Shown piece after piece: positions 3,816-44,007 of a DNA stretch of 64,000 nt (the stretch's first letter is position 1; each line of letters starts with the position of its first letter). The position numbers and the translations under genes are program-made. This DNA is from a bacterium HR21 (lineage in GTDB: Bacteria > Bacteroidota > Ignavibacteria > Kapaibacteriales > HRBIN21). Location of the stretch: NCBI GenBank assembly GCA_002898295.1, contig BEHX01000001.1, positions 115,790 to 179,789 of the forward strand. Direction: 5' to 3'. A model generated the notes under the pieces. That model made no database searches and was not told the DNA's origin. It worked only from the letters and a program-made list of their open reading frames with translations.

Positions 3816-3901
3816 CGAGCCCCAGGGGTAGCTGTGGGTAACGGTGGCGGTGGAAGCGGTATTTTGCAGCGTGGTTTGTGCCCATCGCAGGGGAATCTAC
3901 C

Positions 3902-5392: not shown

Positions 5393-5414
5393 CAGCAAGC
5401 AGAGGGAGACGACC

Positions 5415-25665: not shown

Positions 25666-26714
25666 CGGAGGCTAGTGACTGGTTCTGTGACCTGCTGCCC
25701 GGTCCGGAGAGCTCGGTGCTGCTCTTCCCAGAAAGCGAGTGCGTCGGCGTAGGAGTGGAGGATGTCCTCCACCGCGCTGAAGGAACAGGCGCTCATGAGC
25801 CGATGTCGGACCGCGGCAGAGTGGGGCAATCCCCGGAGGTAGCCAGCGTAGAACTTGCGGAATTCCCGCACGGCACGCTCTTCGCCCTTGAAAGTGATGG
25901 CAAGCTGCAAGTGACCAAGGCACGTCTGAATGCGCTCCTGCGGAGTTGGTACGGAGTAGCTCCCCGTTGCGAGCATCTGCTTTGCCTGCTGGAAGATGAA
26001 GGGATTGCCAATAGCGGCGCGCCCGATCATGACCGCATCGCAGCCTGTCTCTGCGAAGGCACGCACGACATCCTCCGGCGAGGACACATCCCCATTGAGG
26101 ATGACTGGGATGGAAACGGCTTCCTTGATGCGGGGGATCCACGACCAATCGGCTTTCCCCGAATGCCCCTGGTCTCGGGTACGACAATGGACGCAGAGTG
26201 CAGCAATGCCTGCCTCTTGTTCCAGACGTCGGGCAATGTTCACGATGTGGATAGAGTCAGCAGACCATCCCAGTCGGGTCTTGACCGTCACAGGTAACCG
26301 GACAGCCCGGACCATTGCACGTGCCAGGGCAACCATTCGGTCGGGGTCTTTCAAGAGGGCAGCTCCCGCATTGCGGGCAACCACGTTCTGTACCCAGCAG
26401 CCGCAGTTGAGGTCCAGAAAGTCGGGTCCACACTCTGCCGCCCTGCGAGCAGCTTCAACGACGGTAGAGAGCTCCCCACCGAAGATTTGGATCGCGACCG
26501 GATGTTCCTCAGGATGCAGGCGCAGCTTCTGCAGGGCTTTCCATGCTCCGCGGACGATCCCGTCAGAGGAGGTGAACTCCGTGTACACGATATCGGCCCC
26601 CATCTGCCGGCAGAGCAGTCGGAAGGCAAGGTCTGTGACATCCTCCATCGGTGCCAGCACGACAGCATTGGCAACCTGCACAGAGCCAATGCGCAGGACA
26701 GCGTACGAGGTCAT
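25653..26714 (-). CDS. dusB: tRNA-dihydrouridine synthase
   Basis: Dus TIM-barrel motifs (LAPMEDVTD, catalytic Cys region NCGCW). Start at MTSYAVLRIG. The longer ORF-track reading overlaps mpg on the opposite strand. Confidence 0.8.
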   Translation of the reverse strand: MTSYAVLRIGSVQVANAVVLAPMEDVTDLAFRLLCRQMGADIVYTEFTSSDGIVRGAWKALQKLRLHPEEHPVAIQIFGGELSTVVEAARRAAECGPDFLDLNCGCWVQNVVARNAGAALLKDPDRMVALARAMVRAVRLPVTVKTRLGWSADSIHIVNIARRLEQEAGIAALCVHCRTRDQGHSGKADWSWIPRIKEAVSIPVILNGDVSSPEDVVRAFAETGCDAVMIGRAAIGNPFIFQQAKQMLATGSYSVPTPQERIQTCLGHLQLAITFKGEERAVREFRKFYAGYLRGLPHSAAVRHRLMSACSFSAVEDILHSYADALAFWEEQHRALRTGQQVTEPVTSLRCLS

Positions 26715-26753
26715 CGTCACAGGCAAGCTGAACAAACCCGGGGTAGAAGACGG

Positions 26754-27386
26754 ATGAGCGTACGGGAAGTGTTTGAGCCGGACCCGCAGAGAGCCTTGCC
26801 GTGCCAGATTTTCCGGCGTCCGACGCGAGAGGTAGCGCGGAGCCTCCTTGGAGCGATTCTGGTCAAGCGGGAACCCGAAGGGTGGTGCGCTGCCCGGCTG
26901 GTGGAGGTGGAGGCGTATCTTCCCGAGGGGGATCCCGCAAACCACGCCTTCCGCGGGAAGACGCGGCGGAATGCCGCGATGTTCGAGCCTGGAGGGGTGC
27001 TCTACGTCTACGCTATCTATGGGCGCCATCGCTGCGTCAACATCGTCACCGAAGGGGCGGGACAGGGAGCTGCTGTCCTGCTGCGAGCAGCCGAGCCCGT
27101 GCTCGGGCTTGAGCTCTTCCGCCGTCGTCGGGGCGACGTGCCGCCGGAGGAGCTCTGCCGTGGACCGGCGCATCTTGCTCGAGCTTTCGGCTTCGATCTC
27201 TCGGATAATTTTCGCTCGATCTGTACCGCGGAGCTCTTCGTGCAAGCCCCGCCCGAACCGGTGCCCGAGGAGCTCATCGGCTGTGGACCGCGTATTGGGG
27301 TCAGTCGCGGACGCGAGCTCCTGTTGCGCTTCTTCCTGCGCACCTCTGCGTGCCTTTCGGGTCCACGCCGCTGGAGCGGGCTATAG
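26754..27386 (+). CDS. mpg: DNA-3-methyladenine glycosylase (Mpg/AAG family)
   Basis: AAG-family motifs ([23 protein letters not shown]-like AIYG). Confidence 0.75.
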
Positions 27387-27456
27387 CTCCGAGGACTTTT
27401 TCAGATATTCGCGCCGGTTCAGGCGACTGCGTCGGTTGGACAGGAGGAGGAACGCC

Positions 27457-28734
27457 GTGGTGGATCTCTTCGAACGCTGTTATGCCTTCCGGCGGGCAGA
27501 TGAAGTCAAGGCGTTGGGGCTCTATCCGTACTTCCACCCGATTGAGGAGAACGAGGGACCGGTGGTGACCATCGGGGGACGCAAAATCATCATGGCAGGC
27601 TCCAACAACTACCTGGGGCTGACCACGCACCCGAAAGTCAAGGAAGCGGCAATGGCAGCAATCCGGAAGTACGGCACGGGCTGTTCCGGCTCGCGCTACT
27701 TGACCGGGACGCTCGACTTGCACGTTGAGCTGGAAGAACGGCTGGCGAAGTTTCTCGGCTATGAAGCTGTGTTGCTCTTCAGCACGGGCTTCCAGACAGC
27801 GCTGGGCACCATTGCCGGACTGGTGCAGAAAGGCGATTACGTCATCAGTGACCGAGAAAACCATGCCTCGATCGTTGCCGGTGCCCTCATGGCGAAGGGG
27901 ATGGGAGCGGAATTCATCCGCTATCGGCACAACGACATGGACGACCTGGAGCGGGTCCTCTCCAGACTGCCCGAGTCTGCTGCGAAGCTGGTCGTCTCCG
28001 ATGGGGTCTTCTCGGTGACCGGAGAAATTGTGGATCTGCCGCGTCTGCTGGAGATTGCGCATCGGTACAATGCACGGGTACTCATCGATGATGCGCACGC
28101 CATAGGAGTCATCGGGATTGGAGGGCGCGGGACGGCGAGCATGTTCGGGCTCACTGAGCAGACTGACCTGACCATGGGCACGTTCTCGAAGACCTTTGCG
28201 TCGCTGGGTGGTTTTGTGGCAGGTCCGGAGCGGGTGATCAACTACCTCAAGCACCACTCCTCGGCACTCATCTTCAGTGCCAGCCCGACACCGGCGTCGT
28301 GTGCAGCAGCCCTAGCGGCACTGGAAATCCTCGAAGAGCATCCTGAGCTGGTGGATAAGCTCCTCCGGAACGCCAACAAGATGCGGCAGGGCTTCAAGGA
28401 GATGGGCTTCCACACGCTCGACGGGCAGACCGCTATTGTCCCTGTCATTGTCGGCGATGTGCAGACAGCGCTCCTGTTCTGGCGCAAGCTCTTCGATGCG
28501 GGCGTCTATGTCAACACCTTTATCCCGCCTGGCGTTCCGCCGAACATGAGCATGATGCGTACCAGCTACATGGCAACGCACGAGGATGAGCACCTGGATC
28601 GGATTCTGGAGGTCTTCGAGAAGGTCGGGCGTGAGCTCGGTTTGCTGAGCGCGGAGGCCCGGGAGCGCATTGCTGCGGGCATTGCTCAGGATCGGCTCGC
28701 GCGCATTCCGGAATCAGATCGTCAAGTCCCGTAA
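27457..28734 (+). CDS. PLP-dependent alpha-oxoamine synthase family acyltransferase (serine palmitoyltransferase / BioF / KBL-like)
   Basis: AOS family motifs ([11 protein letters not shown]-lysine motif [12 protein letters not shown]). No ATG lies upstream in frame. A GTG at 27457 sits 9 nt downstream of an AGGAGG sequence. Confidence 0.7.
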
Positions 28735-28738
28735 GCGG

Positions 28739-29500
28739 ATGCAAGGGCGGCGGGAGCGTGGGCTTCAGGGGCGGGTTTCCTTGGTGACCGGCGCAGCCAT
28801 TGGGAATGGGCGAGCCTTCTGCGAGCGTCTGGCCGAAGAGGGCAGTCGGATTGTCATTGCTGACATCGCTGATGCCAGTGACACCGCAGAAGCTGTCCGC
28901 CGCCTCGGTGCCGAGGTGCTCACCATCCGGGCTGACCTGACCAAGCCCGACGATGTGGCAACGATGATGGAGACCATCCGTGCCCAATGGGGTGGGGTGG
29001 ATATCCTCGTCCACAATGTCGGACTCTACGAGGAGGAGCCTTTCGAGCTGCTGAGCTTCGAGCAGTGGAAGCGGATGCTGGAAATCACGCTCAACAGCCT
29101 CTTCCTGACTGTCAAGGCGGTGTTGCCCTCGATGAAAGAGCGCGGCTTCGGGCGGATCATTGCGCTATCGTCTGATACGGTTTGGCTGGGAATGCCGTAC
29201 CTGGTGCACTACGTGACAGCGAAGATGGGCATCATCGGCTTTGTGCGTTCGCTGGCAGCCGAGGTAGGGCGCTACGGCATCACTGTCAACGCCATCACCG
29301 TTGGGCTGACAGCCACGCAGCGTCCGGACGCCGCTCCGCTGTCGCAGACGATTCTGCAGCATATCTTGCCCACGCAGGCAGTCCATCGGGCTGATGAGCC
29401 CGAGGACATTGCCAATGTGGTTGCCTTCCTCGCATTGCCAGAATCGGGCATTATTACCGGGCAGACGATCAACGTAGACGGTGGTGTTGCACGGCACTGA
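28739..29500 (+). CDS. classical short-chain dehydrogenase/reductase (FabG-like)
   Basis: TGAAIGNG cofactor motif, NVG, and a YVTAK catalytic dyad. It lies 5 nt after the AOS stop. Confidence 0.8.
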   Translation: MQGRRERGLQGRVSLVTGAAIGNGRAFCERLAEEGSRIVIADIADASDTAEAVRRLGAEVLTIRADLTKPDDVATMMETIRAQWGGVDILVHNVGLYEEEPFELLSFEQWKRMLEITLNSLFLTVKAVLPSMKERGFGRIIALSSDTVWLGMPYLVHYVTAKMGIIGFVRSLAAEVGRYGITVNAITVGLTATQRPDAAPLSQTILQHILPTQAVHRADEPEDIANVVAFLALPESGIITGQTINVDGGVARH

Positions 29501-30498
29501 TGGGCAAGCGTGCCTTGCTGCTGACCGCTGTGCTTGCCTGCCCACTCCTGGGGCAGATCCTGCCCCGGTTTGGAGAAGAGCGCGTGGGCAGTTCTGCGGC
29601 GAGCGCGTTGAAAGCGCTCGGGAGTGCCCGAAGTGCCGGGCTGGTTTCTGCCACGACAGCTCTGCCTGAGCCGGGGAGCGTGTGGCTCAACCCTGCTGTT
29701 GCCGCAGAGCAGCAAGGGCGCTACGCTCTCGTGCTTGCCAGCCAACGCTTGATTGCAGAGGTATGGCACCATGCTCTCTGTGTGGGCTATCGCTTCTGGG
29801 AGCCGGGGACGGTGGCGCTGTCCTTCTCGGTGGTGAGCCTGCCGCCCATTGAGGAGACCACAGAGTTTCGCCCCTACGGCACGGGGCGCCAGTTCCGGTT
29901 CGGGCAATGGACTGCAGCGCTGAGCTATGCCCACCGCTTCACAGAGCAGTTCGCCGCTGGGGTGACGCTCCGCTACGTCCAGGAAAACTGGGCGGAAGTC
30001 ACTCTCCGGGGGATCACGTGGGATGCTGGAACCTTTTATTGGACCGGCATCGGAAGCCTGCGCCTGGCGGTTGCGGTATCCCATTTCGGATTGCCCCTCC
30101 GTGCCGTTGGTCCTCTGCCGGAACAGGGCGCTCCCGCAAGGGATTTCCGCGAGTTTGCTCCGCCGACGGTTTTCCGAATTGGGCTCGCTGGGGAGTTGCT
30201 GCACGATGCTCTGCAGCGCTGGACATGGGTTGCCTCGGTGGAGCATCCCAGCGATCAGTCCGAAAGCTACGCGGTTGGCAGTGAGTACGCGGTCCGATTC
30301 TCCTCAGCCTTCCCGGCAGAACTCCTTGTGCGGGCAGGGCTGCGAGCGCAAGCAGCCCAGTGGTGGGCAGTCGGTGTTGGAGTCCGTCTCCCCCTTGCTC
30401 CCTTCACGCTGCAGCTGGACTACGCTCTTACCGCGCAGCCTCCCTTCGGACTTGCGCATCGCTTCGGATGTACGGTGGAGCCCTTCCGAGGACCGTAG
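29500..30498 (+). CDS. PorV/PorQ-family outer-membrane beta-barrel protein (T9SS-associated family)
   Basis: Signal peptide, then an alternating beta-strand pattern that ends in an aromatic residue. The N-terminal ALKALGSARSAG ... NPAVAA motif resembles the PorV N-terminal signature. Its start overlaps the SDR stop (TGATG). Confidence 0.5.
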   Translation: MGKRALLLTAVLACPLLGQILPRFGEERVGSSAASALKALGSARSAGLVSATTALPEPGSVWLNPAVAAEQQGRYALVLASQRLIAEVWHHALCVGYRFWEPGTVALSFSVVSLPPIEETTEFRPYGTGRQFRFGQWTAALSYAHRFTEQFAAGVTLRYVQENWAEVTLRGITWDAGTFYWTGIGSLRLAVAVSHFGLPLRAVGPLPEQGAPARDFREFAPPTVFRIGLAGELLHDALQRWTWVASVEHPSDQSESYAVGSEYAVRFSSAFPAELLVRAGLRAQAAQWWAVGVGVRLPLAPFTLQLDYALTAQPPFGLAHRFGCTVEPFRGP

Positions 30499-30500
30499 CC

Positions 30501-31565
30501 ATGGGCAGGCATGACGCTGCCGCCGGTGTTCTTGTACTGGGACTTGCTCTCGGGGGAAGCAGTGGTTGCCTCGTAGAACGTCCGCCGCTGCCGACCGCAC
30601 CGCCAGTGGATACAACGCGTGTTGGCGATACCGTCTACGTTCCCCTGGAGCCAGCGTGGACAGGCTTCCGGAACCCAGCCGATGTCCTCGTTGGGCGAGA
30701 GCCTTTCATCTACGTTGCCGATACAGACAACGACCGCATCGTGATGCTGGACCTTGCCGGGCGCCTCCTTGGGGTCTCCGGGCGTATTCGCCGTCCGGTT
30801 GCGCTGGCGCAGGATGGGCATTTCGACCTACTGGTCTGTGCTGAGCTGGATACGCTGCTGCCTGCCGGGCAGATGACCATCGGGGCAGTCTTCCGCATCA
30901 AGCTGCGGCAGGCTCACCATAACCTCGCACAAGCCCCCATCGTCCTTGCGTATGCTGAACCGGAGCGCCCGCAGCGCCGCTTCACCGGCGTTGCCGTACT
31001 GCCGGACAACAGCTACCTCCTGGCACGCACCGGACCGCAGAACACCTCTGCTGTTGACCCGGACGAGGCTGTCCTCCACATTGGTCCAGATGATCGGCTC
31101 CGCTCGCCTATTGCAACACTGCGTCCTATCGGCGTCGCTCTCAACTCTCTGGGCAAGCTCAGCGGACTGGCACTCTCTGCCGATGGTCAGGAGTTGGTTC
31201 TGACCCAGCGCGGGGAGACCATGCAATACCGCGTGCAATGGCTGCGCTACGTGACCGGCGAGGGTGCAGGATGGGCGCAGAAATTCGACCCAGCACGCCA
31301 GAGCCCAACTGTGCTACAGCCCGGGCGGTTCCGTGCTCCTGAAGGTGCTGCCTTTGACGGCAACGGGGCAGTCTATGTGGTGGATGCGGAAGCCGATAGC
31401 CTCTTGGTACTCTCTCCCTCGGGCATGCTCGTGCGGGGATACCAGGGCGAAGGGCTCTCGCGGCTCCGCCGTCCCAGCGGGGTTTCGGTGTACAACCGCA
31501 CTGTCTACATTGCCGATGCAGGCAACGGACGCATTCTGCGCCTCCGCCTCTCCACGGATATGTAA
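30501..31565 (+). CDS. NHL/beta-propeller repeat lipoprotein
   Basis: Lipobox LGGSSGC. Repeated [VI]Y[VI]AD...[RS][IL]..L NHL-like blades (YVADTDNDRIVMLD, VYVVDAEADSLLVL, VYIADAGNGRILRL). Confidence 0.55.
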   Translation: MGRHDAAAGVLVLGLALGGSSGCLVERPPLPTAPPVDTTRVGDTVYVPLEPAWTGFRNPADVLVGREPFIYVADTDNDRIVMLDLAGRLLGVSGRIRRPVALAQDGHFDLLVCAELDTLLPAGQMTIGAVFRIKLRQAHHNLAQAPIVLAYAEPERPQRRFTGVAVLPDNSYLLARTGPQNTSAVDPDEAVLHIGPDDRLRSPIATLRPIGVALNSLGKLSGLALSADGQELVLTQRGETMQYRVQWLRYVTGEGAGWAQKFDPARQSPTVLQPGRFRAPEGAAFDGNGAVYVVDAEADSLLVLSPSGMLVRGYQGEGLSRLRRPSGVSVYNRTVYIADAGNGRILRLRLSTDM

Positions 31566-31569
31566 GGAC

Positions 31570-32010
31570 ATGGTGGGAGTGACGATGTGGCATCTCGGTG
31601 TCCTCTTGCTGGCGGTGGTGATGGGATGTCGGAGTACAACGCCGGAGCCGCCTGTGGAAGGGGAAATCCTCCTCGGGCAGGGAGGCGGGTTTACGGGCAT
31701 GTATTCCGGACACCTGCTGCGCTCCGATGGGCTGGTCTTCCGCTGGAGCCAGATGCCCGGACAGCCGGAGCGGACGGAAGAAGCCGGTCGTGTCCCTGCC
31801 GATAGCCTCCAGCCATTTTTCCGCAAACTGGCACGCTGGCAGCAGGAAGGAAAGACAGTGCTCAGTACGGGCAACATGGTGGCTTTCCTCGAATTCCGCC
31901 ATGCCGGGACGCGCTACCGGCTCCAGTGGGGGCTCGGTGAGACCAATGAGCCAGAGGTCCAGGAACTCTACCAGGAGCTCCTCCGCTTTCTCCGGCGGCA
32001 TCTCCCTTAG
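31570..32010 (+). CDS. small lipoprotein of unknown function
   Basis: Signal peptide with lipobox (LLAVVMGC). 146 aa with no recognisable domain. Confidence 0.45.
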   Translation: MVGVTMWHLGVLLLAVVMGCRSTTPEPPVEGEILLGQGGGFTGMYSGHLLRSDGLVFRWSQMPGQPERTEEAGRVPADSLQPFFRKLARWQQEGKTVLSTGNMVAFLEFRHAGTRYRLQWGLGETNEPEVQELYQELLRFLRRHLP

Positions 32011-32729
32011 GTATTCCGGAGCAGCTGAGAGAGCGCTTCGGGGTCCAGAAGCCGGATCCGGTTGTCAGCACAGCGAATCAGATTCCGGCGCTCCAGGACC
32101 GACAGCGTGCGACGGACGGCAGAGATAGAGGTACGGAGGAGCTCAGCAATGCTGCTTGGCGTTGCTGGGAAGCGGAGAGAACCCTCCTCGTCGGCTCCAT
32201 AGGTCCGGAAAAGCAGCAGCAGAAAGTGGATCACGCGCTCACGCACGGAGCGGCGCTGGAAGAGGAGAAATTGCTCTTCGATGGCTTCGATCTCGCGGGC
32301 AAGGAGCTGCACGACTCGCACCCAGAACGAGAGATGTTCCCGGGCAAAGCGCTCTACGAGCTCTGCCGGGAACAGACACGCGCGGAGCTCCTCGAGCGCG
32401 ATGACGCTGACACTATGCCGCCGCTCACCGAAGAGGTCTCGGAGTCCGAGGAGATCCCCTGGTTTGTGGAGGGCAACCAAGAGCTCTTCGCCGTCATCCC
32501 CGACAGAGAGCACAGCTTTCGCCGTCCCGCTGGCGATGCAGTAGAGCTGCGTTACTGGTTCCCCGGCTCGCACAATCGGAGTGCCAGGCGCGAAGAGAAC
32601 CGTCTGCCGGGCACGCGCCAGCGTCTGCTGTGCCTCCTCTCCGAGCTGTCCAAGAGGGCTAAGCCAGCCGTGCGGGCACTGGCTGCAGAGGCGAAGCTGT
32701 TCCCGAGTTTGGGACAGCATAAGGCTCAA
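32007..32729 (-). CDS. Crp/Fnr family transcriptional regulator
   Basis: cNMP-binding-like beta-roll followed by a C-terminal HTH (SIAELLRTSISAVRRTLSVLE). Confidence 0.75.
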   Translation of the reverse strand: MSLMLSQTREQLRLCSQCPHGWLSPLGQLGEEAQQTLARARQTVLFAPGTPIVRAGEPVTQLYCIASGTAKAVLSVGDDGEELLVALHKPGDLLGLRDLFGERRHSVSVIALEELRACLFPAELVERFAREHLSFWVRVVQLLAREIEAIEEQFLLFQRRSVRERVIHFLLLLFRTYGADEEGSLRFPATPSSIAELLRTSISAVRRTLSVLERRNLIRCADNRIRLLDPEALSQLLRNT

Positions 32730-35471: not shown

Positions 35472-36680
35472 TCAAGGGTGAGACAGGAGCTGCTGTGCTC
35501 GCTCCAATGCTTTCTCAGGGGAGTGGATGCCGTAGAGGGCTTCAACGACGGCGTTCTCGAAGGCAGCCTCCAGTTCGAGCCACTGAGGATGGACAGGGGT
35601 CATCCGCGCCCGGCGTAACTGCTCGGCGAAGTGCCTCCGGTACGGGATACTGAGCAAGAGCGAGTCCTGCACGAAACGCTGGTCGGCAGGGAACCCTGCC
35701 TCTGGTACGGCACGGCAGAACCGCACGGCGGTTTCTCCGGCAGTCAAGAAACGGACGAGGGCAAGTGCCAGCTCTTTCCGCGGGGAAGCAGCACTGATGG
35801 CAAGGTACTCCCCACCGGCGAAGGAGATCCCGGGCTGCAGTGGAGTCTGCCCGGGAAGCAGGGCAAGACTGTACTCCCAGCGCGGCTGCTGCTGCCGCAG
35901 TTTCTCCGCCAGCCATGCTCCCGAGACCCAGAAGCCGAGCTTGCCTTGGAGGAAGAGGTCGTCGAGCTGCCGTTGGGTTTCAATGAGCCCCACACGGGCA
36001 AGCTCTGTATAGAAGCGTACCGCTCTCACAACGGGAGGCGCCGTCAGCTGTGGGCGTCCGGTGCTGTCCAGCAAATCGCCACCGAAGCTCCATACGAGCG
36101 GGAGCACCTTCTTGTAGAGCCGGTGTGGGTCAGCGCCGTTGACTCCGCAACCGTACAGAGACGGCGGGGAATGGAGCTGGGATGCCCGCTGCAGGAGCTC
36201 TTCCCACGTCTGGGGCGGCGTCTGCGGGAGCCCAGCCCGCTGGAGAGCCGTTCGATTGAGGAACAGCACACGGGTATCCACAATCCACGGGACAGCGTAG
36301 AGCTTGCCCTGCCAGAAACACGGTGGGTGAGTGGCAGCCAGGAAGTGCTCCAGCGGAATGCTGTCTCGGGGCAGTTCCCAGAGAACGCCAGCGCTGGAAA
36401 ACTGGGCAACCCAATCGGAGCCGAGCTCCAACACGTCAGGAGGCTTTCCTGCATTGAAAGCAGCCAGCAGCTTGGTTTTCCCTTCGTTCCAGGTCAACTC
36501 CGTGACGTCCACCCGACAGTGGAAGCGCTGCTCAAATTCAGCAATCAGCTCCTGCAGAGCAGCGCGGTGTCGTGGTTCACTCCAGAAATGCCAGAAGCTG
36601 ATGCGGCGCTCCTCGGGCACGTTCCCGGGACGGCATGCACTCAGCAACACAAGGATGCTCAGCACTGCTCTGGCACTCAT
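35472..36680 (-). CDS. ABC transporter substrate-binding lipoprotein (family 1, sugar/oligosaccharide type)
   Basis: Lipobox (LLSAC) and SBP_bac_1-like composition. Its start overlaps the stop of the upstream SLBB gene. Confidence 0.6.
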   Translation of the reverse strand: MSARAVLSILVLLSACRPGNVPEERRISFWHFWSEPRHRAALQELIAEFEQRFHCRVDVTELTWNEGKTKLLAAFNAGKPPDVLELGSDWVAQFSSAGVLWELPRDSIPLEHFLAATHPPCFWQGKLYAVPWIVDTRVLFLNRTALQRAGLPQTPPQTWEELLQRASQLHSPPSLYGCGVNGADPHRLYKKVLPLVWSFGGDLLDSTGRPQLTAPPVVRAVRFYTELARVGLIETQRQLDDLFLQGKLGFWVSGAWLAEKLRQQQPRWEYSLALLPGQTPLQPGISFAGGEYLAISAASPRKELALALVRFLTAGETAVRFCRAVPEAGFPADQRFVQDSLLLSIPYRRHFAEQLRRARMTPVHPQWLELEAAFENAVVEALYGIHSPEKALERAQQLLSHP

Positions 36681-37216
36681 CGCCCTCCGCGGAAGAAGAG
36701 AACCAGCGTGACCGCTGCCTGCAAGATGAGGAGGACATCCCGGACAACCCCGACGACGACCTCCAGCGTACTGAGTGCTCCGCCGGGGACGATGACTGTA
36801 TCACCGGGATACAGCAGTGGATTCTGGCTCGGGTCGCCGGTGCGCTGGTAGAGTTCCAGGTTGTAGACCAGCACTCGCTCGACGATGGTGGTATCCACCC
36901 GCACATCCCGGATGACGCGGACATCGGTCAGCCGGGCGTACTCGGTTGGTCCGCCACCGAAGGAGATGAGCTGGACCAGCGTGGTAGAGCTGGGGACCAA
37001 GTAGCGCCCTGGGACACGGACGTAGCCCCAGAGGTTGACCGGAATGGTCAGTCCAGCCCCGAAGCTGAGGTCGTAGTATGCAGCCCCGCCCAGCCCAGTG
37101 TACGGCATCGAACGGGGTTGGGACTGTTCCTGCCCTGGAGGAGCAAAGAGGTTGCGGGGATGCTGTGCCCAGAGCAGCGGCGCTGCCAGGAGGAGCAGTC
37201 CGAAGCGCAGGCTCAT
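36677..37216 (-). CDS. SLBB/polysaccharide-export (Wza-like) domain protein
   Basis: Signal peptide; SLBB beta-grasp motif (GYVRVPGRYLVP...TLVQLISFGGG...RVIR); PES-like PGDTVIVP motif. Confidence 0.55.
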   Translation of the reverse strand: MSLRFGLLLLAAPLLWAQHPRNLFAPPGQEQSQPRSMPYTGLGGAAYYDLSFGAGLTIPVNLWGYVRVPGRYLVPSSTTLVQLISFGGGPTEYARLTDVRVIRDVRVDTTIVERVLVYNLELYQRTGDPSQNPLLYPGDTVIVPGGALSTLEVVVGVVRDVLLILQAAVTLVLFFRGGR

Positions 37217-37241
37217 GACCCGTTGGGAGTCGAGTAAGACA

Positions 37242-38006
37242 TCATCGCAGCCAGAACGTGCGCCAGACCGAACTTGCTCCGCGTTCGGGGCGTCCAGGTG
37301 TTACGCGGCTGATACGCCAGCGGTAGAGCTTCCCCGGCTGCAGTGGCTCGGCCCGTCCGTCCTGATTGTAGCGAATTTGAGGGCGTGAGTAATCGAGCGG
37401 GACCCCGGCGAAGACCCACACGGGGCGTCCTCCAATGTCAGGGTTGAGCGAGTCTGCCTCGAAGACGCGAAGGACCACGTACCCAACATTGTTGCTCCAG
37501 CGGAAGATGACCGAATCGGGAGCGACAGCCCCGATCGGTGCCAGAGGCACAGGGGGAGGCTCCAGCGTGAAGCGTACGGTGTCTGAGGGAGGACCTTCGC
37601 GCCGCTGCGGCGAGCGGTCCAGCGCATGGACACGGTAGTAGTACGTGCGCCAGGGGGTAACAGCCAGGTCAACGTACGCCGTATCTTCCGCCGTAGTGCC
37701 GTACTCGATCGTGACCAACTCGTGGAAGTTGATGGGACGTCCACTGGAATCGGTCGTGTCGCTGCGGTAGAGTCGATAGCCGCCGACTTTGAGCGGGTCG
37801 AGAGCATGCCACTCCAGCCGAATGCCTCCCACGCCGTTTGCAGCGGCGTCGGGCCATGGGCGAACGCCCGTCTCGAAAGCAGCCGTATCGGCACTGCGGG
37901 TAACCCAGCGCGGAGCCTCCAGCGGAGTCGGGGGTGACTCTGTCGGAGTCCCGCATCCGCTCACTGCCAGGAGAAGGAGGCACCAGGAACAGAGCTGCAT
38001 CATCAT
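37242..38006 (-). CDS. lipoprotein with fibronectin-III-like repeats
   Basis: Lipobox (LLAVSGC). Two repeats ending in Y(R/Y)(W/Y)R-type FN3 strands (YRLYRSD, YYYRVHALD, YRWRISRV). Confidence 0.5.
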   Translation of the reverse strand: MMMQLCSWCLLLLAVSGCGTPTESPPTPLEAPRWVTRSADTAAFETGVRPWPDAAANGVGGIRLEWHALDPLKVGGYRLYRSDTTDSSGRPINFHELVTIEYGTTAEDTAYVDLAVTPWRTYYYRVHALDRSPQRREGPPSDTVRFTLEPPPVPLAPIGAVAPDSVIFRWSNNVGYVVLRVFEADSLNPDIGGRPVWVFAGVPLDYSRPQIRYNQDGRAEPLQPGKLYRWRISRVTPGRPERGASSVWRTFWLR

Positions 38007-39100
38007 CGGAGGCGTTCCAGTATAGGTCCGAGCCGGAGACTGACAGCCAGTCGGTGGACATTGCCCAGCTGTGCGTCGGAGTCAGCTAGGAAGCCATAGT
38101 CGGCGCTGAGGAAGCCGACATCCACACCGGCGCCGAGTGTCAGAACCCCGTGGTATGCCCCGAGCCGGAGGGCAAAACTACGGCGATAGGTTACTTCGAT
38201 GCCGTAGTTGCTGGCACCGCTGTAGCGGCTGTCGCGGTCGTAGGCAATGGTAGCTTCCATGTGCCACATTTCCAGCGGTTGCGTCAGAGCAATCCCCCAC
38301 TGGACCGAGCTTGGGATGCGGTGTGGACGCTGGGTGCTCCACAGAAGCCGTGTTCCCCCGAGGTCGCGCACGAATAGCCCCAGAGCTAGTCGGGGCCAGC
38401 GTTCATCGAAGGCGATGTCCTTGAGGTTGACCCGCAGTGCTGCTCCAAGGTCTAAGCCCAGCCCTGAAGCGGTGTGCTCGGCAATGCGCTGGTGAAGGAG
38501 TTTGAGGTTGACTCCGATGGGGAATTCTACCGGGACGGCAAAGCGCATCCAGCCGAAATCCACCGGGATGACGAACAAGTGCGCTAGGCTCAGCCAGAGA
38601 GCGTCATCGGCATTGGGGATGAATTCACCCTGTCCAGCACGTCGGACGAGCTCTTCCCGCTCTTGCGGCGAGAGCACCCGCGTCAGGTCCGGATACCGGC
38701 GGAGGTCTGGGACGGTGAAGCGTACCCAATTGATGCCCAGCTGTGCCCGGGATACCGGCACGGTAAGCCCGGTGTGGAAGAAATGCGCCAGCGGTGAACC
38801 GAGCGAGCCATACTGCGAACTGTACATGCCTGACACGAGCGGAGTCGGGGGAAGCAGCGCCAAGCCCGCAGGATTCCAGGCAAATCCCCATGCGTCATCG
38901 GCAACGGCGCTGAAGGCTCCACCCATGCCCAGTGCTCGGGCTCCGAGCGGAATCTCCAGAAAAGCCCCCGCATAGGGCTCCTCTTGTGCCCACAGCGTCA
39001 GGCACATGCCGAGAATGCTAACGAACCCGCGCCACACTGCCGCGCCGCTCAATGACAGTCTCACCTGCTCGGACACGGACTCGGTAGAAGTATACCCCAT
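38003..39100 (-). CDS. porV: T9SS outer-membrane protein PorV (LptO) family
   Basis: Directly downstream of porU. N-terminal GARALGMGGAFSAVADD...NPAGLA signature and beta-barrel periodicity. The start is uncertain: Met codons at 39121 and 39100, and Met109 at 39007. Confidence 0.7.
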   Translation of the reverse strand: MGYTSTESVSEQVRLSLSGAAVWRGFVSILGMCLTLWAQEEPYAGAFLEIPLGARALGMGGAFSAVADDAWGFAWNPAGLALLPPTPLVSGMYSSQYGSLGSPLAHFFHTGLTVPVSRAQLGINWVRFTVPDLRRYPDLTRVLSPQEREELVRRAGQGEFIPNADDALWLSLAHLFVIPVDFGWMRFAVPVEFPIGVNLKLLHQRIAEHTASGLGLDLGAALRVNLKDIAFDERWPRLALGLFVRDLGGTRLLWSTQRPHRIPSSVQWGIALTQPLEMWHMEATIAYDRDSRYSGASNYGIEVTYRRSFALRLGAYHGVLTLGAGVDVGFLSADYGFLADSDAQLGNVHRLAVSLRLGPILERLR

Positions 39101-42100
39101 TGGCCACCGGACGCCCCTCATCGTCGGTGCCATCCCACCAGATTTCGTGGTACCCTGGGGCGGTCGGCAGCCCGGTCCCGCCGCGCAAGAAGCCAAAAGC
39201 TTCCGTCGGGGAGGAGGTCGGGAAGACCATACGCCGGATTGAACGCCCGGAAGCGGTGTAAAAGCGGACTTCAATCTCATCCACGTTACTGGCACCCAGC
39301 AGCTCGTAGGCGATAAACATCTCCTCGGCAAACGGGTTGGGAAAGGTGCCCAGGAGACGCAGCTCTAGCGTTGTGGAAACTTCCACCTGGATGCAGGTGC
39401 GTTCGCTCGTGTTCCCGTTGCAGTCGGTGAGTGTCGCACAGATGATGTGGGTCCCACTTTCCAACCGCGGACGGTAGCTGATGCTGGCAGCCGTTGGGGT
39501 CTGCGCGGTATCCAGTACGGCGTACTGACTTGCTGGGACGGGCTGCCCGTTGAGTGTCAGCTGGATCGAGCCGGTGTCGGTGGCAATTCCGTTTTCATCA
39601 ACGCCGACGATGCCAATGCGGGGGTATGCCGAGAGGACCGTCCGCGTCGGCAGAGAGCGCCCTTCTGCCGTAAGTCGGACCTGCGGTGGGCGCCGGTCTG
39701 TTGTTACTCCTACGGCGAAGACCCCGGGCAGAGTCACTTCAGCGGTGAGCACTCCCGGGCTGAGCTCGGAGCTAGGTAAACGCTGCCACAGGTCTAGCCG
39801 GGAGTGCTTCCGGTAGAGTGCCGGGGTCCCACGCTGGAGGGAACTATCCTGGCGGTCATACCAGAGCTGCAAGGTTGCGCGAAGTGGCTGCGCAGTGGTG
39901 ATGGCAAGAGCGCGTGAGCTATCGGCAAGGCGGAGGAGGAAGACATCGGGCTGGACCGTGCGGGCAGAATCCAGCACCTGCAAGCAGAGGAGCACAGGGG
40001 TTGAGGGAGCCGCTGCCGCGGGGACTTCCACCACGGCAATCCCAGGGACGCCCACGGCGGTAGCCTGTACCCCGTCTGGAGTTGTCCCCAGCCCCGGCAT
40101 GACGGCAAAGCATCCAAGCAGCAGGCTGTCTTCGGCAGCGTTGTTTGCCTGGATGCGGTCCCCACCGGTGGAGAGAGTGTCGCTGAGTACCTCAAGCCGG
40201 AGCCAACGAGGACGGAGCGCCGGGGGAGGACGGAGGAGCCAGTCCGTGAAGCCGTTTCCTGGGATATCCAGCCGCTGCGCTGCCAGCAGTTGGAGCCCGC
40301 CGCCGGGTTGCCGTTGCCAGAGCCGAGCAAGAACTGCCCCCGCGGGCGTCTCCGACCAGTTGTAAAGGCGCGCCTGAAGCTGTGCCCCTTGCCCGGTGAC
40401 AACCATCCGCAGCCAGGGTAGAGCTGTCCGGAGACTGTCCCCGGCGAGGGGAAGCAGTACGGCTGGGTCGGCAATCCCGGGGACACGGAAAGTGGCAAGC
40501 CACGAGCTGACGCTCTGCCCAGTGGAGAGTGTCACTGTGAAAAGCACGCGGAATTCCGCACCGGCAACCACGGATGCTGCGGGAACCGGAGGCTGGGTCT
40601 GGTAGAGCTCCGGAGCAACAAGCTGGCACGGCAGAGTCCCTAACGAAGAGAGCGTTCCATCGGGCAGGAGTACGCTCACCGTTGCCGTCACTGTCTGGAC
40701 CGGAGTACGGCTGCGGACGCTGATGCGGAATGCCAGAGGCTGTCCCGGTACGGGGGGCGAAGGATTCGACTGGATTTCTCCAAGCAGGACAGCCCCGGTG
40801 CTCAGTGTCACACCACCGCTGAGGGCGCGGGTGCCATCGGCGGAGACGACGTAGAGACGCACGGAGAGCCGCGAGCCGGTGTAGGTGGCAGGGATGCGGA
40901 CCGACCAGCGGAGCCTCGTGCCTGAAAGCGACACCACCTGCTCACTTCCCGGCAGATCGTTCCCGCGCTCGTCAGTGAGCAGGAGGCGGGCAGTGCCGGA
41001 GCCGAACGGGAGTACTGCCTGCACGGTGAGAGAGTCGCCGGGATATGCCGTTGCCGGCTCAGCCTCCAGCCTGAGGGTATCGGGAGGCAGCCGGAGAAGC
41101 ATTGCTGGATCGCCCAGGAGGGTGGACTGCAGCAGCATGGAGAGAACAATCTCGTTTTGCAGCCCGTACGCTCGGGCAGCGTAGAGGAGCTTGCCACCGC
41201 GGAAGACGTCGCCCAAACGCTGTTCCGTACCCGTTGGACGGGTCAGCACCTCCAGGAGGGCGGTGGAAAGCAGGAAGCTATTCTCCAGCCAGCCGTAACC
41301 GGAATTGCCCCAGGCTGCCACGGCGCCGCGCCGAGGAGCAATGACAAGGCTGGTGAGCAACCCGCGGCGGTAGACCTGCTGCTCGAAAGCCCCGGTAAAG
41401 CATGTCAGGCTGGAGACAATCGGGTAGCGCCCTCGATTTTGGAGGAGCTCCACATCCTCATCGCGGAGGAGTCCGGCGTCTTCCCAAATGCCGCCTCCGC
41501 CGTGCCCGAGGAAGTTGACCACAGCGGCTCCCTCGGCGAAGAGTTGGAGCAGCTCGCTGGTGTGCCCGGAATACGGTGTGCCAGGGGCAACGTAGAGACG
41601 CCGCTGGGAAATCCCTGGTGGCAGGCGCTCGGCAAGGAGTTCGGTCTGCTGCTGAAAGCCGTTGAGCCCTGCCAGGAGCAGGACTCGGGGGTGAAAGTAC
41701 TCGGTGGCGTAGCGCCCTTCGTGTTCTTCCAGCTTGGAGATCACGGCGTCAGCCTCTGCGAGGGTTTCAGCCGGAATGCGCCCGATGGCAATTTCCGCAA
41801 AGGGATCGTCAGTCAGCGCTCCTGTTGGGGTCTGATACGTTCCTTCAACGCAGCCGTAGGGGTAGTCGGTCGGTGTCATGCCCCAGCGCCGGGTCTGCCA
41901 GAGCTGTGGCGGAAGGGGACGAGCAGATCCGAGCAGCAAGACGTAGCGCGGGGGAACGCTCCAGGTATGCCATGCGTACCGGAGGAAACGGCGGAGAGCT
42001 TCCCGGGAGGCAATGCCGTAGTTGAATTCGTCGTAGATGTCTTCGATGTCTACCGCCATTGCACGCAAGCCCTGGCGCTGGCGGAGCTGCAGCAGGCGCT

Positions 42101-43958
42101 GTACCGGATGGGTCGGTGAGACAGCTTCGGGTGTTTGCCGATCCCAGAGCCCCTTGTGGGTGATGAGCAGATAGTCGGCAGCGTTTGCAGGATTGACAAG
42201 ATCGGACGGGAAGTCTCGCACCAGGCGCCGAGGGGTCCGGACACTGTCGGCTGCAATGGCGTAGAAGAGCTCCTCGGGCGAGGCAACGTAACTCTGGAAG
42301 CGGACTGTGTAGCGGACTCCGCCGAACGGGAGCGTCACTCGTTCGAGGCTGAAATTGACAATTCGGGAGACTCCGTAGCGGAAGAGCAAGATGTTCGGGG
42401 TCCGGAAGCCTTCAAGGGCAAATGTATACAGTCCCGGTGGGGAGCCTTCGGGGGTGCGAAAGAGCAGCTCGTCATCGGTTGCGACGTAGAGCCGGGGATA
42501 GCGAATGCGGACCCAGTTGAGGAAGAAGCTCGGGGCACGGTCGGCCGCCTCTGGGCAGTCGAAGATGTTCGCAACGGTCAGGGTGCTGCTGTCAGCCTCG
42601 GCAAGGAGGGAAGCGGGGATAGGCGCAATCTGGTCCCGAGGGGAACGCACCAGGAACGGACGCGCATCGGACCAGGAAGCGCGCAGGATCCGCCGTCGGT
42701 TGAGGTAAATCTCGGCAGTGTACGGCGGAATTGGGCACGGCAGAGGGCGTGCCAAGGCGCCACAGAGCATGACTTCAACCTCGACCGGGTCAGGTGCCAG
42801 GAGCGCCGGTGCAGGAAGCCGAATAGGTACCGTGACACTCGTGTTGGCAGGTACGCGTGCCCAGAAGAGCTGGTCCCCACGGAAGCTCGGCAGCAGGAGA
42901 TCGCGGTCCAGCTCTTCGACCGCACCGAAGCGCTCTTCGAGGCGGTTTTCCTCCACGATGACCGTGCTGAGGAAGGCCCTGCCGCGCAGGTCTACCATCC
43001 GTCGAGGGTCGCTGATACGGATGTCCCCGGATTCTTCCACCATCCGCTGCCCTTTGCCCGGAGCCCAGGTCAGGACGTAGACGTTTTCGTCGGTCTCCGG
43101 GTCGCGGTACATGTCGCCGTAGGGGTTCTGGAAGCTAACTCGGTTGGCTTCTGCGAAGAACGCCAGGTAGTCCGGGTCAGGGGGATAGTCGTCCAATCGT
43201 CCGTTGTTGTTGCGGTCGTAGACGTAGAGGGGGATTTCACGCCCACGGTTCCACAAGCGGAAGGATTCTACCGGGATCGTTGCAAGCGGTATACCGAGCT
43301 CCTGCAGCTGGCGAGCGGTGACCCTGTAGAGCCCATCCCGATCCACGATGAGCTTGTACTGATAGCCGTCAGGTGCTGTTGGGATGCGGTGAGGTTCTCC
43401 CTGCAGGAGCTCTCTCCCTGCCGTGCTGCGGGCGGATGCTGGCACGGAGGATGGCTCAATGACGGGAATACCTGCCGAGAAGGGAACAGGGCTGCGGAAA
43501 CGGACGCGAAACTCCCGGGCGATGCGCACGCGGTGTCTCTCGGTATCCAGGGTGTAGGGGAAAAGTTGGAGCGCTGCGATGGAGTGCTCGCCCGTGCTAC
43601 CCAGCGGGAGGAGGCGTGCCAGCGGAGGATCCTCCGGACGGCACTCGGTACAGCGGCGCTGGGCAAGCGGAGCTTCAAGCGGCAGCTCTTGCCAGCGCAG
43701 TACTTCAGTGGAAAGCTCCGTCTGCGGCGGGAGGCGCAACAGGAGCGCAAAGCCATAGAGGGCTCGATCAGGCAGAGCAAATGCCCAGCGGGAAAGCGGT
43801 GGCAGTTGCCGCATGCCGTCTGCTGTGGGAACGAAGCTCGGGGCATCGAGCTGGACGGTCAGTACCAGCTCGCCGGTACTGGAGCGCTCCCAGGAGGTGC
43901 GGAGTTCTTCGCCGACAGCACTTCCGACAGCGAGGAGGAAGAAAACGCCCCAGAGCAT
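39018..43958 (-). CDS. porU: T9SS C-terminal signal peptidase/sortase PorU (peptidase C25 family), unusually long at 1646 aa
   Basis: Signal peptide MLWGVFFLLAVGSAVG. Gingipain-like catalytic His (VNFLGHGGGG) and Cys (SSLTCFTGAF) motifs. C-terminal Por_Secre_tail-like domain. Conserved porU-porV adjacency. Confidence 0.8.
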   Translation of the reverse strand: MLWGVFFLLAVGSAVGEELRTSWERSSTGELVLTVQLDAPSFVPTADGMRQLPPLSRWAFALPDRALYGFALLLRLPPQTELSTEVLRWQELPLEAPLAQRRCTECRPEDPPLARLLPLGSTGEHSIAALQLFPYTLDTERHRVRIAREFRVRFRSPVPFSAGIPVIEPSSVPASARSTAGRELLQGEPHRIPTAPDGYQYKLIVDRDGLYRVTARQLQELGIPLATIPVESFRLWNRGREIPLYVYDRNNNGRLDDYPPDPDYLAFFAEANRVSFQNPYGDMYRDPETDENVYVLTWAPGKGQRMVEESGDIRISDPRRMVDLRGRAFLSTVIVEENRLEERFGAVEELDRDLLLPSFRGDQLFWARVPANTSVTVPIRLPAPALLAPDPVEVEVMLCGALARPLPCPIPPYTAEIYLNRRRILRASWSDARPFLVRSPRDQIAPIPASLLAEADSSTLTVANIFDCPEAADRAPSFFLNWVRIRYPRLYVATDDELLFRTPEGSPPGLYTFALEGFRTPNILLFRYGVSRIVNFSLERVTLPFGGVRYTVRFQSYVASPEELFYAIAADSVRTPRRLVRDFPSDLVNPANAADYLLITHKGLWDRQTPEAVSPTHPVQRLLQLRQRQGLRAMAVDIEDIYDEFNYGIASREALRRFLRYAWHTWSVPPRYVLLLGSARPLPPQLWQTRRWGMTPTDYPYGCVEGTYQTPTGALTDDPFAEIAIGRIPAETLAEADAVISKLEEHEGRYATEYFHPRVLLLAGLNGFQQQTELLAERLPPGISQRRLYVAPGTPYSGHTSELLQLFAEGAAVVNFLGHGGGGIWEDAGLLRDEDVELLQNRGRYPIVSSLTCFTGAFEQQVYRRGLLTSLVIAPRRGAVAAWGNSGYGWLENSFLLSTALLEVLTRPTGTEQRLGDVFRGGKLLYAARAYGLQNEIVLSMLLQSTLLGDPAMLLRLPPDTLRLEAEPATAYPGDSLTVQAVLPFGSGTARLLLTDERGNDLPGSEQVVSLSGTRLRWSVRIPATYTGSRLSVRLYVVSADGTRALSGGVTLSTGAVLLGEIQSNPSPPVPGQPLAFRISVRSRTPVQTVTATVSVLLPDGTLSSLGTLPCQLVAPELYQTQPPVPAASVVAGAEFRVLFTVTLSTGQSVSSWLATFRVPGIADPAVLLPLAGDSLRTALPWLRMVVTGQGAQLQARLYNWSETPAGAVLARLWQRQPGGGLQLLAAQRLDIPGNGFTDWLLRPPPALRPRWLRLEVLSDTLSTGGDRIQANNAAEDSLLLGCFAVMPGLGTTPDGVQATAVGVPGIAVVEVPAAAAPSTPVLLCLQVLDSARTVQPDVFLLRLADSSRALAITTAQPLRATLQLWYDRQDSSLQRGTPALYRKHSRLDLWQRLPSSELSPGVLTAEVTLPGVFAVGVTTDRRPPQVRLTAEGRSLPTRTVLSAYPRIGIVGVDENGIATDTGSIQLTLNGQPVPASQYAVLDTAQTPTAASISYRPRLESGTHIICATLTDCNGNTSERTCIQVEVSTTLELRLLGTFPNPFAEEMFIAYELLGASNVDEIEVRFYTASGRSIRRMVFPTSSPTEAFGFLRGGTGLPTAPGYHEIWWDGTDDEGRPVANGVYFYRVRVRAGETVIERRGSVARVR

Positions 43959-44007
43959 TCCCGCAGGACGCCGCAGCTGGATGGCAGGACAGCTTACCGG
44001 ACGCAAA

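Follow-up and report, generated by a model that had tools for sequence, protein, structure and literature searches.

Six co-directional genes at positions 26754-32010 of the window (a 64,000-nucleotide stretch of the genome of HR21, a hot-spring member of the Kapabacteria) form a row in which unrelated units of a very compact genome have probably been placed side by side in this lineage alone. The first unit would serve the synthesis of a sphingoid long-chain base: a PLP enzyme resembling serine palmitoyltransferase (Spt; the gene is termed AOS below) would convert serine and an acyl thioester to 3-ketosphinganine, and the SDR encoded next to it would reduce the 3-keto group. The second unit, a PorV/PorQ-family barrel and an NHL-repeat lipoprotein, joined in this clade by a small lipoprotein, would form an outer-membrane complex of predicted composition and topology. 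Co-transcription, if it occurs, would then reflect gene packing and not a common pathway. The initial annotation had proposed that the row couples a lipid-biosynthetic step to T9SS-type outer-membrane components, a proposal that we do not retain, since the barrel and NHL lipoprotein occur without AOS and SDR in many lineages of the FCB superphylum, AOS occurs without the barrel, and the two are fused in a single collinear clade.

Layout, spacing and transcription signals

The features to which we refer, taken from the open reading frames of the window unless another start is given, are the following:

26754-27386, plus strand: mpg, DNA-3-methyladenine glycosylase (PF02245, 196 bits; NF002003, 198 bits with a cutoff of 182)
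27372-27391, plus strand: weak terminator-like hairpin with a T-run, lying across the mpg stop codon (6 pairs, 4 of them G-C; 8-nt loop)
27457-28734, plus strand: AOS, serine-palmitoyltransferase-like, 425 aa (GTG start, with the ribosome-binding site AGGAGGAGG just before it)
28739-29500, plus strand: classical SDR, 253 aa (adh_short and adh_short_C2)
29500-30498, plus strand: PorV/PorQ-family barrel, 332 aa, with signal peptide (NF033709)
30501-31565, plus strand: NHL-repeat beta-propeller lipoprotein, 354 aa, lipobox ...GGSSGC (PF01436)
31570-32010 (146 aa) or 31585-32010 (141 aa, database start), plus strand: small lipoprotein
32007-32729, minus strand: Crp/Fnr-family regulator, convergent with the row (cNMP_binding and HTH_Crp_2)
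38003-39100, minus strand: porU-linked PorV-family paralog (NF033709, 75 bits, below the cutoff; PorV2, 64.5 bits)
39018-44027: PorU (Peptidase_C25), with an ortholog in locus L003

The order and common strand of the six genes are as first described, and so is the presence of two lipoproteins after the barrel. The gene at the head of the row, mpg, is a bystander whose function is unrelated to that of the other members; at the 3' end the row is bounded by the convergent Crp/Fnr gene, which occupies the same place in all members of the clade. The mpg-AOS and AOS-SDR gaps measure 70 and 4 nt, not 71 and 5 as initially given, while the remaining three values stand: a 1-nt overlap between SDR and barrel (TGATG), 2 nt between barrel and NHL lipoprotein, and 4 nt before the small lipoprotein if the latter starts at 31570. 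This last gap becomes 19 nt with the start at 31585, which follows from the 141-aa length of the database entry, HRbin21_00123. Such tight spacing says little about shared function, since about half of the co-directional pairs in the window can lie this close: at least 17 of 32 such neighbour pairs may be no more than 10 nt apart (a lower-bound estimate; median 4 nt). In public gene calls, unrelated genes are likewise packed together, with overlaps of 20 nt for Hpt/TilS and 13 nt for TilS/Dus, and a distance of 5 nt between MurB and FtsH.

Consensus-only scans gave no exact match to the Bacteroidota-type -7 motif TAnnTTTG within 26300-32100, where all matches with one mismatch fell inside coding sequence, and they gave no convincing terminator in the row, in which no Rfam element was found either. 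These scans thus found no promoter or terminator between SDR and barrel, where either would have spoken against a single transcript. The hairpin at the end of mpg is the sole candidate for a transcript break, and compared with shuffled sequence the 101-nt mpg-AOS spacer region shows no excess of structure (z = +0.72). The single transcript that had been predicted for the whole row is therefore plausible for the part from AOS to the small lipoprotein, with a weak hairpin that might set mpg apart, and the transcripts of the row probably number one or two. As the row yielded neither promoter nor terminator in its interior, the two modules are probably co-expressed.

The barrel and its lipoprotein partner

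That the row encodes a PorV/PorQ-family barrel, and that this is a second paralog apart from the porU-linked one, was borne out. The protein scores 102.3 bits with the family model NF033709 (cutoff 90; its relatives score 160-200 bits), and it is only very distantly related to the porU-linked paralog (24% identity over part of its length, E = 0.016). The structural check suggested at the outset gave a 14-stranded FadL-type fold closest to PorV. Sequence matches of the barrel family are restricted to PorV/PorQ models, PorV is the only match of the family profile among solved sequences, and the family carries an invariant motif of its own, ETTE..PYGTGR. Of the genes in the row, that of the barrel evolves fastest. 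Within the wider family, T9SS PorV proper was rejected (NF033710, 23.2 bits vs a cutoff of 250; no linkage to porU), as was T9SS PorQ proper (NF033711, 27.1 bits vs a cutoff of 220; the neighbouring NHL lipoprotein has no PorZ match), and the PorV2 model (cutoff 325) gave no match.

An NHL homolog lies directly downstream of the barrel, as judged by a family HMM, in Kapabacteria-type loci and in L013-L019 (Bacteroidia, Cytophagia), with weaker matches after the barrel in L005, L020 and L021. All of these NHL partners have the lipobox cysteine, and going by this gene order the NHL lipoprotein is a conserved partner of the barrel. The small lipoprotein, on the other hand, was found only in the HR21-like clade.

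By analogy with several known systems (PorV-PorU, PorQ-PorZ, BamG-BamH, and PorP/SprF with type-B cargo), the barrel may serve the adjacently encoded lipoprotein as its partner or dock in the membrane. The T9SS is present in the organism, as PorU and proteins with Por_Secre_tail domains are encoded in the window, and the barrel resembles PorV (LptO) and PorQ in passing the family model and in adjoining the gene of a plausible partner. Unlike them, it comes nowhere near the equivalog cutoffs for PorV, PorQ and PorV2 and has neither porU nor porZ beside it, and the NHL lipoprotein with which it is paired has a lipobox but no T9SS C-terminal sorting domain. In BamG-BamH a FadL-type barrel docks a surface lipoprotein (PMC12611786). 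However, BamH has a carbohydrate-binding fold whereas the partner here is an NHL propeller, and bamG (Fjoh_1412) and bamH (Fjoh_0823) are not adjacent while the genes studied here are (PMC12611786). The barrel is not BamG (Fjoh_1412) itself, to which it has no detectable sequence relationship. PorP/SprF-like barrels whose genes adjoin those of their type-B CTD cargo (PMC9143113) offer a parallel in which a surface protein is anchored by a small barrel of its own, encoded alongside, although that barrel belongs to another family and its partner carries a C-terminal sorting domain and is no lipoprotein.

One may also consider that the barrel and NHL lipoprotein are unrelated to the T9SS and form an accessory of nutrient acquisition left over from a polysaccharide-utilisation (PUL)-type locus, with the barrel as a FadL/porin-type uptake channel and the NHL protein as a substrate-binding or enzymatic partner. 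NHL propellers are frequently enzymes or ligand binders, a TonB-dependent-receptor-like gene precedes the barrel in L005, L013, L020 and L021, and in L021-L042 the barrel lies amid GH38 enzymes and an ABC sugar transporter. Against this stand the exclusive matches of the family to PorV/PorQ models and, among solved structures, to PorV. Moreover, in the PUL-like loci of Rhodothermales, Ignavibacteria, Calditrichia and Zixibacteria the barrel lies between GH38 enzymes and proteins with T9SS C-terminal sorting domains, so that cargo handling fits at least as well, and we consider uptake unlikely. A barrel found beside T9SS cargo elsewhere also fits the preferred reading, in which it would partner surface proteins encoded by its neighbours.

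This barrel subfamily, with its conserved NHL-lipoprotein partner in Kapabacteria, Bacteroidia and Cytophagia, appears to be uncharacterised so far. The pair extends an emerging theme, that of FadL-fold barrels in the FCB superphylum serving as docks for surface proteins, and it is the part of the row worth following.

The AOS-SDR pair

AOS belongs to family PF00155 and by sequence is closest to bacterial serine palmitoyltransferase. Its best solved relative is the Sphingobacterium multivorum enzyme (3a2b, 393 bits, compared with 249-274 bits for solved Kbl and 200-228 bits for cysteate acyltransferases). The alignment to 3a2b contains one 3-residue gap, upstream of the active site, and both the GTFSK motif with the PLP lysine and the DDAH motif are retained. 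SulA has Lys281 at a discriminating position where Spt has Ala (PMC9304779), and AOS has Ala (FSAS) 30 residues after the PLP lysine, matching Spt and not SulA if, as the spacing suggests, the positions are equivalent. Among NCBIfam models the best is NF047600, serine palmitoyltransferase of the CFB type (481 bits), followed by TIGR01825 (388), BioF (375) and Kbl (367). The NF047600 score lies below the equivalog cutoff of 640 bits, a counterpoint to the sphingoid reading.

The SDR scores 162 bits with adh_short and reaches no specific equivalog. Its translation contains the Gly-rich NAD(P) motif (TGAAIGNG) and YxxxK (YVTAK), both common to all SDRs and therefore neutral as to substrate, and its nearest solved relatives act on small alcohols. 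We regard it as a candidate 3-keto-long-chain-base reductase, the one line of support being its adjacency to AOS, which is conserved in two lineages: in L048 an ortholog with 72% identity lies downstream of the AOS ortholog, with no barrel after it. The term "lipid-head-group enzymes" initially used for the pair is a misnomer, as AOS and a keto-reductase would build the long-chain base backbone.

A close known counterpart is the Bacteroides serine palmitoyltransferase with its 3-ketosphinganine reductase (BT_0870/BT_0972; PMC9278070), which the pair resembles in the affinity of AOS to the Sphingobacterium enzyme and in the adjoining classical SDR. Unlike here, the Bacteroides genes are not clustered; AOS falls under the curated SPT cutoff, and in further contrast to that comparison no downstream ceramide genes were found in the window. 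The pathway of SulA/CapB and 3-ketocapnine reductase has the same chemistry, AOS then SDR, and it yields lipids of the outer membrane that in Bacteroidota have a historical association with gliding (PMC9304779, PMC11211663). AOS differs from the cysteate acyltransferases of this pathway in scoring much lower with them than with SPT and in its Ala at the SulA position.

Alternatively, AOS and SDR might be a small-molecule amino-ketone pair, either a Kbl-like glycine C-acetyltransferase with an SDR of the threonine/serine dehydrogenase type, or enzymes of BioF-like chemistry. Operons of kbl and tdh are a known arrangement, the identity of 74-79% among AOS orthologs of different classes is reminiscent of a central-metabolism enzyme, and the sub-cutoff SPT score, the high scores of the competing models (367-388 bits) and the small-alcohol relatives of the SDR point the same way. 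Nevertheless, SPT outranks Kbl and BioF among the NCBIfam models and Kbl among solved structures. In addition, the threonine dehydrogenases known to us are Zn-dependent medium-chain enzymes or extended SDRs, never classical SDRs of 253 aa. The bacterial reductases known to act on 3-ketosphinganine and 3-ketocapnine, in contrast, belong to the classical SDRs (PMC9278070, PMC11211663). We hold an amino-ketone role to be quite improbable, and the sphingoid reading of the pair is preferred. Since the Spt-like enzyme is highly conserved in Kapabacteria and Ignavibacteria, one would predict sphingoid lipids in these little-studied classes.

Occurrence of the two units in other genomes

The full arrangement is confined to one clade, that of the HR21-like Kapabacteria, whose members are collinear over about 20 kb around the row, from FtsH to PorU, so that conservation of the row within the clade can be explained by shared ancestry. 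Elsewhere the units come apart. At least seven other species-level loci, including L013-L019 (Bacteroidia, Cytophagia) and L005, have barrel and NHL lipoprotein with no AOS or SDR nearby, and upstream of such pairs one finds a thiL-like AIRS gene or a TonB-dependent-receptor-like gene. Outside the clade, AOS orthologs of 74-79% identity stand alone in six contexts, whereas in L048 AOS is paired with SDR alone.

These observations weigh on the possibility that lipid and barrel are truly coupled, i.e. that barrel and lipoproteins handle the lipid product of AOS and SDR, be it in export, insertion or organisation within the outer membrane, or that this lipid is needed to attach the client or T9SS cargo, with the operon providing co-expression. 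A lipid role of the barrel is possible, as the FadL fold is a transporter fold for lipids and hydrophobic molecules, and the tight or overlapping junctions are kept across the clade. A link between such lipids and the T9SS or gliding is also not without precedent, contrary to what was first stated: a serine palmitoyltransferase mutant of Porphyromonas gingivalis lost cell-associated gingipain activity and had altered gingipain anchoring (PMC5126122), and a connection of sulfonolipids with gliding is of long standing (Abbanat 1986, cited in PMC9304779). Yet the separate occurrence of the two units and the 20-kb collinearity argue against coupling, and unrelated genes, including mpg within the row, are packed equally tightly; we therefore find it distinctly unlikely. 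Had comparative genomics supported it, coupling would have offered a mechanistic link of a new kind; the lack of such support spares wet-lab effort on the wrong hypothesis. It is very improbable that barrel and NHL lipoprotein are an undescribed and widespread FCB-superphylum module, a third PorV/PorQ-type pair with a lipoprotein client, recruited into a sphingoid-base operon of thermophilic Kapabacteria because the complex needs or handles the lipid.

Side-by-side placement of two unrelated units thus remains the preferred reading. As a counterpoint to it, the row is intact in the clade at barrel identities of 54-67%, with its tight junctions preserved, and in the L003 lineage it has outlasted a rearrangement close by on its downstream side, which could reflect selection for co-expression.

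Gene content of the row and its distribution across genomes

The source, "bacterium HR21", is a hot-spring MAG whose close relatives carry the labels Kapabacteria, Kapaibacterium or Chlorobiota. All six co-directional ORFs of the initial annotation are present, encoding among others an alpha-oxoamine synthase (AOS) and a short-chain dehydrogenase/reductase (SDR):

26754-27386, + strand: mpg, the first gene in the row
27457-28734, + strand: AOS, GTG start with AGGAGGAGG before it; 70 nt gap to mpg
28739-29500, + strand: SDR; 4 nt gap to AOS
29500-30498, + strand: barrel, 332 aa; TGATG overlap (1 nt) with SDR
30501-31565, + strand: NHL lipoprotein; 2 nt gap to barrel
31570-32010, + strand: small lipoprotein; 4 nt gap to the NHL gene

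The database version of the small lipoprotein (HRbin21_00123) has 141 aa, which places its start at 31585 and widens the gap to 19 nt. The last stop codon of the row is overlapped by a convergent Crp/Fnr gene.

A barrel-family scan of species-representative genomes yielded 36 loci, and the full order mpg-AOS-SDR-barrel-NHL-small lipoprotein-crp was observed in only five of them (L008-L012), all Kapabacteria-type; two further handles, L003 and L004, are second names for L012 and L011. Identities within this clade are 89-93% for AOS, 87-89% for SDR, 76-80% for the NHL lipoprotein and 60-68% for the small lipoprotein, and only 54-67% for the barrel. Since the FtsH-PorU stretch, about 20 kb long, is collinear in most of the clade loci, shared ancestry is enough to explain why the adjacency was kept. 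In the L003 lineage the row is intact and the region just downstream is rearranged, which is weak evidence of selection on the row.

Beyond the clade, the gene directly after the barrel encodes an NHL lipoprotein in L013-L019 (Bacteroidia and Cytophagia) and a more divergent NHL lipoprotein in L005, L020 and L021. In none of these loci (L005, L013-L021) is there an AOS or SDR beside the pair, which is preceded outside the clade by a thiL-like AIRS gene or a TonB-dependent-receptor-like gene. AOS orthologs stand alone in six of the contexts examined, and in a Bacteroidota MAG (L048) the AOS is followed, at a distance of 345 nt, by an SDR ortholog of 72% identity, with no barrel after it. Judged by gene order, AOS(-SDR) and barrel-NHL are separable modules that are fused in one lineage only.

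The barrel and its neighbouring lipoprotein

The assignment of the barrel to the PorV/PorQ family holds, with 102.3 bits against a family-model cutoff of 90, as does its description as a second paralog, 24% identical to the porU-linked gene at 38003-39100. It falls far short of the PorV and PorQ equivalogs, and a profile of its family searched against all PDB sequences retrieved PorV only (E 1e-14). The family comprises 1,079 representatives at 50% identity (E 1e-30 or better), and all members tested outside the clade pass PorV_fam (160-200 bits) and fail the equivalogs. The motif ETTE..PYGTGR (residues 119-130; 29854-29889) is invariant in 13 of 13 aligned members, at identities down to 27%; it falls in a lower-confidence segment of the structure model and is a candidate loop for partner or ligand binding.

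The NHL protein is a lipoprotein (lipobox GGSSGC) that has no T9SS C-terminal sorting domain. Neither an HMM made from the compared loci nor a large protein database revealed the small lipoprotein outside the clade; its fold resembles Mago nashi, which provides no functional lead. A ~215-aa protein that shows no clear signal peptide, encoded after the NHL gene in Bacteroidia, was considered as a third module member and rejected, being present in some loci only.

In Rhodothermales, Ignavibacteria, Calditrichia and Zixibacteria (L021-L042) the barrel belongs to a recurrent polysaccharide-utilisation-like locus, in which a TonB-dependent-receptor-like gene (CarbopepD_reg, Plug and barrel domains) and a ~612-aa protein weakly matching the T9SS C-terminal sorting domain precede it, and a GH38 mannosidase-like enzyme carrying Por_Secre_tail and an ABC sugar transporter (SBP_bac_1 and two permeases) follow. 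This arrangement suggests dedicated PorV/PorQ-like barrels for T9SS glycosidases encoded in the same locus. With receptor-like and sugar-transporter genes in these surroundings, one may also consider that the barrel-NHL pair acts in nutrient uptake, a reading that we regard as unlikely beside the T9SS-cargo neighbours.

Most likely, the barrel and the lipoprotein encoded next to it would be partners in an outer-membrane complex, in the HR21 clade possibly together with the small lipoprotein. This reading draws on the strict barrel-NHL adjacency across classes, on the T9SS-cargo neighbours elsewhere and on known precedents. PorV-PorU and PorQ-PorZ are precedents for a barrel with a partner. Likewise, PorP-like barrels pair with type-B cargo (PMC9143113) and BamG docks the lipoprotein BamH (PMC12611786). 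A literature search found no link between NHL proteins and PorV, and what remains of interest is this uncharacterised pair within the PorV/PorQ kind.

The enzymes upstream and the proposed lipid link

Family models identify mpg as a genuine 3-methyladenine glycosylase. The best model for the AOS is the CFB-group serine palmitoyltransferase (SPT), at 481 bits, under the equivalog cutoff of 640, and its nearest solved relative is the SPT of Sphingobacterium multivorum (393 bits), compared with 249-274 bits for Kbl structures and 200-228 bits for cysteate acyltransferases. Thirty residues past the PLP lysine the AOS has an alanine (FSAS), as does SmSpt in the alignment; SulA carries Lys281 at the corresponding position (PMC9304779), an equivalence inferred from spacing. 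On bit scores and this alanine, a sulfonolipid (CapB/SulA) pathway was set aside as less likely than SPT. The SDR is a generic classical SDR that reaches no specific equivalog; the 3-ketosphinganine and 3-ketocapnine reductases known from bacteria belong to this type (PMC9278070, PMC11211663).

AOS and SDR most likely make a sphingoid base, as homology and the recurrent AOS-SDR adjacency suggest: an Spt-type condensation would be followed by 3-keto reduction. The window has no further sphingolipid genes, and a non-lipid amino-ketone pathway is improbable given the SPT scores. A database search returned 8000 AOS matches at E 1e-50 or better, and orthologs 74-79% identical are abundant in Kapabacteria and Ignavibacteria. 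Such identity is unusually strong conservation, and it predicts sphingoid-type lipids throughout both groups.

The initial annotation had proposed a functional coupling of this lipid step to T9SS-type components and called such a link not described. The latter is too strong: cell-associated gingipain activity is strongly reduced in an SPT mutant of P. gingivalis (PMC5126122), and sulfonolipids are classical gliding determinants according to Abbanat 1986, as cited in PMC9304779. Coupling itself is not borne out, the modules being separable and fused in one lineage only, and for all these reports we give a true lipid-outer-membrane coupling little chance.

Spacing, transcription signals and other T9SS-related genes

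Gaps of 10 nt or less are possible in 17 of the 32 co-directional neighbour pairs of the window (median 4 nt), a lower-bound estimate. Public gene calls give overlaps of 20 nt for Hpt/TilS and 13 nt for TilS/Dus, and in a relative 5 nt separate MurB from FtsH. The row itself is headed by a DNA-repair gene, mpg. Its tight spacing is not meaningful by itself.

A scan of the row for sigma-70-type promoters and intrinsic terminators gave none that was convincing, including between SDR and barrel, where they would have spoken against a single transcript; apart from a weak hairpin at the mpg stop, nothing in the row resembled a terminator. Rfam searches of the region revealed no known RNA element, and the mpg-AOS spacer folds no better than shuffled sequence. 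The window contains 10 copies of TAnnTTTG, the Bacteroidota -7 motif, against about 6 expected; as 9 of 100 shuffles reached 10, the count is not significant. Six copies are located shortly before + strand gene starts (18244, 32861, 44736, 47126, 54034 and 57964), a placement suggesting that these Kapabacteria may use Bacteroidota-like promoters. No exact copy falls within 26300-32100, and allowing one mismatch gave nothing convincing in the row. Scans of this kind neither show nor refute co-transcription. Of the single transcript originally proposed, an operon from AOS onward stays plausible, with tight junctions and no convincing internal signal.

Another tight row, with junctions of -4 to 25 nt, occupies the opposite strand:

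35472-44027, - strand: PorU, PorV-family paralog, 254-aa protein, SLBB protein, SBP_bac_1

PorU is a Peptidase_C25 protein of 1669 aa, the 254-aa protein has no family match, the SLBB protein is of polysaccharide-export type and SBP_bac_1 is a sugar-binding protein. A T9SS sortase operon containing SLBB and solute-binding proteins is unusual, and the SLBB protein (90-93% identity in the clade) is the best conserved among the genes downstream of crp. In L003 (12802-16993) PorU is on the same strand as the row, about 1.8 kb downstream of it, after crp, crp and NUDIX, and the Fer4/CCG-to-PorV-paralog block of the window is missing there.

The pair at 3878-6977 consists of a DUF1800 protein and, after it, a DUF1501 protein with a T9SS Por_Secre_tail. 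Such a sorting domain is unexpected, because DUF1501 proteins are usually exported via the Tat pathway. Finally, the 875-aa protein at 58079-60706, which has SBBP beta-propeller repeats and a CHU_C-associated-type Ig_7 domain, is probably another T9SS surface protein.
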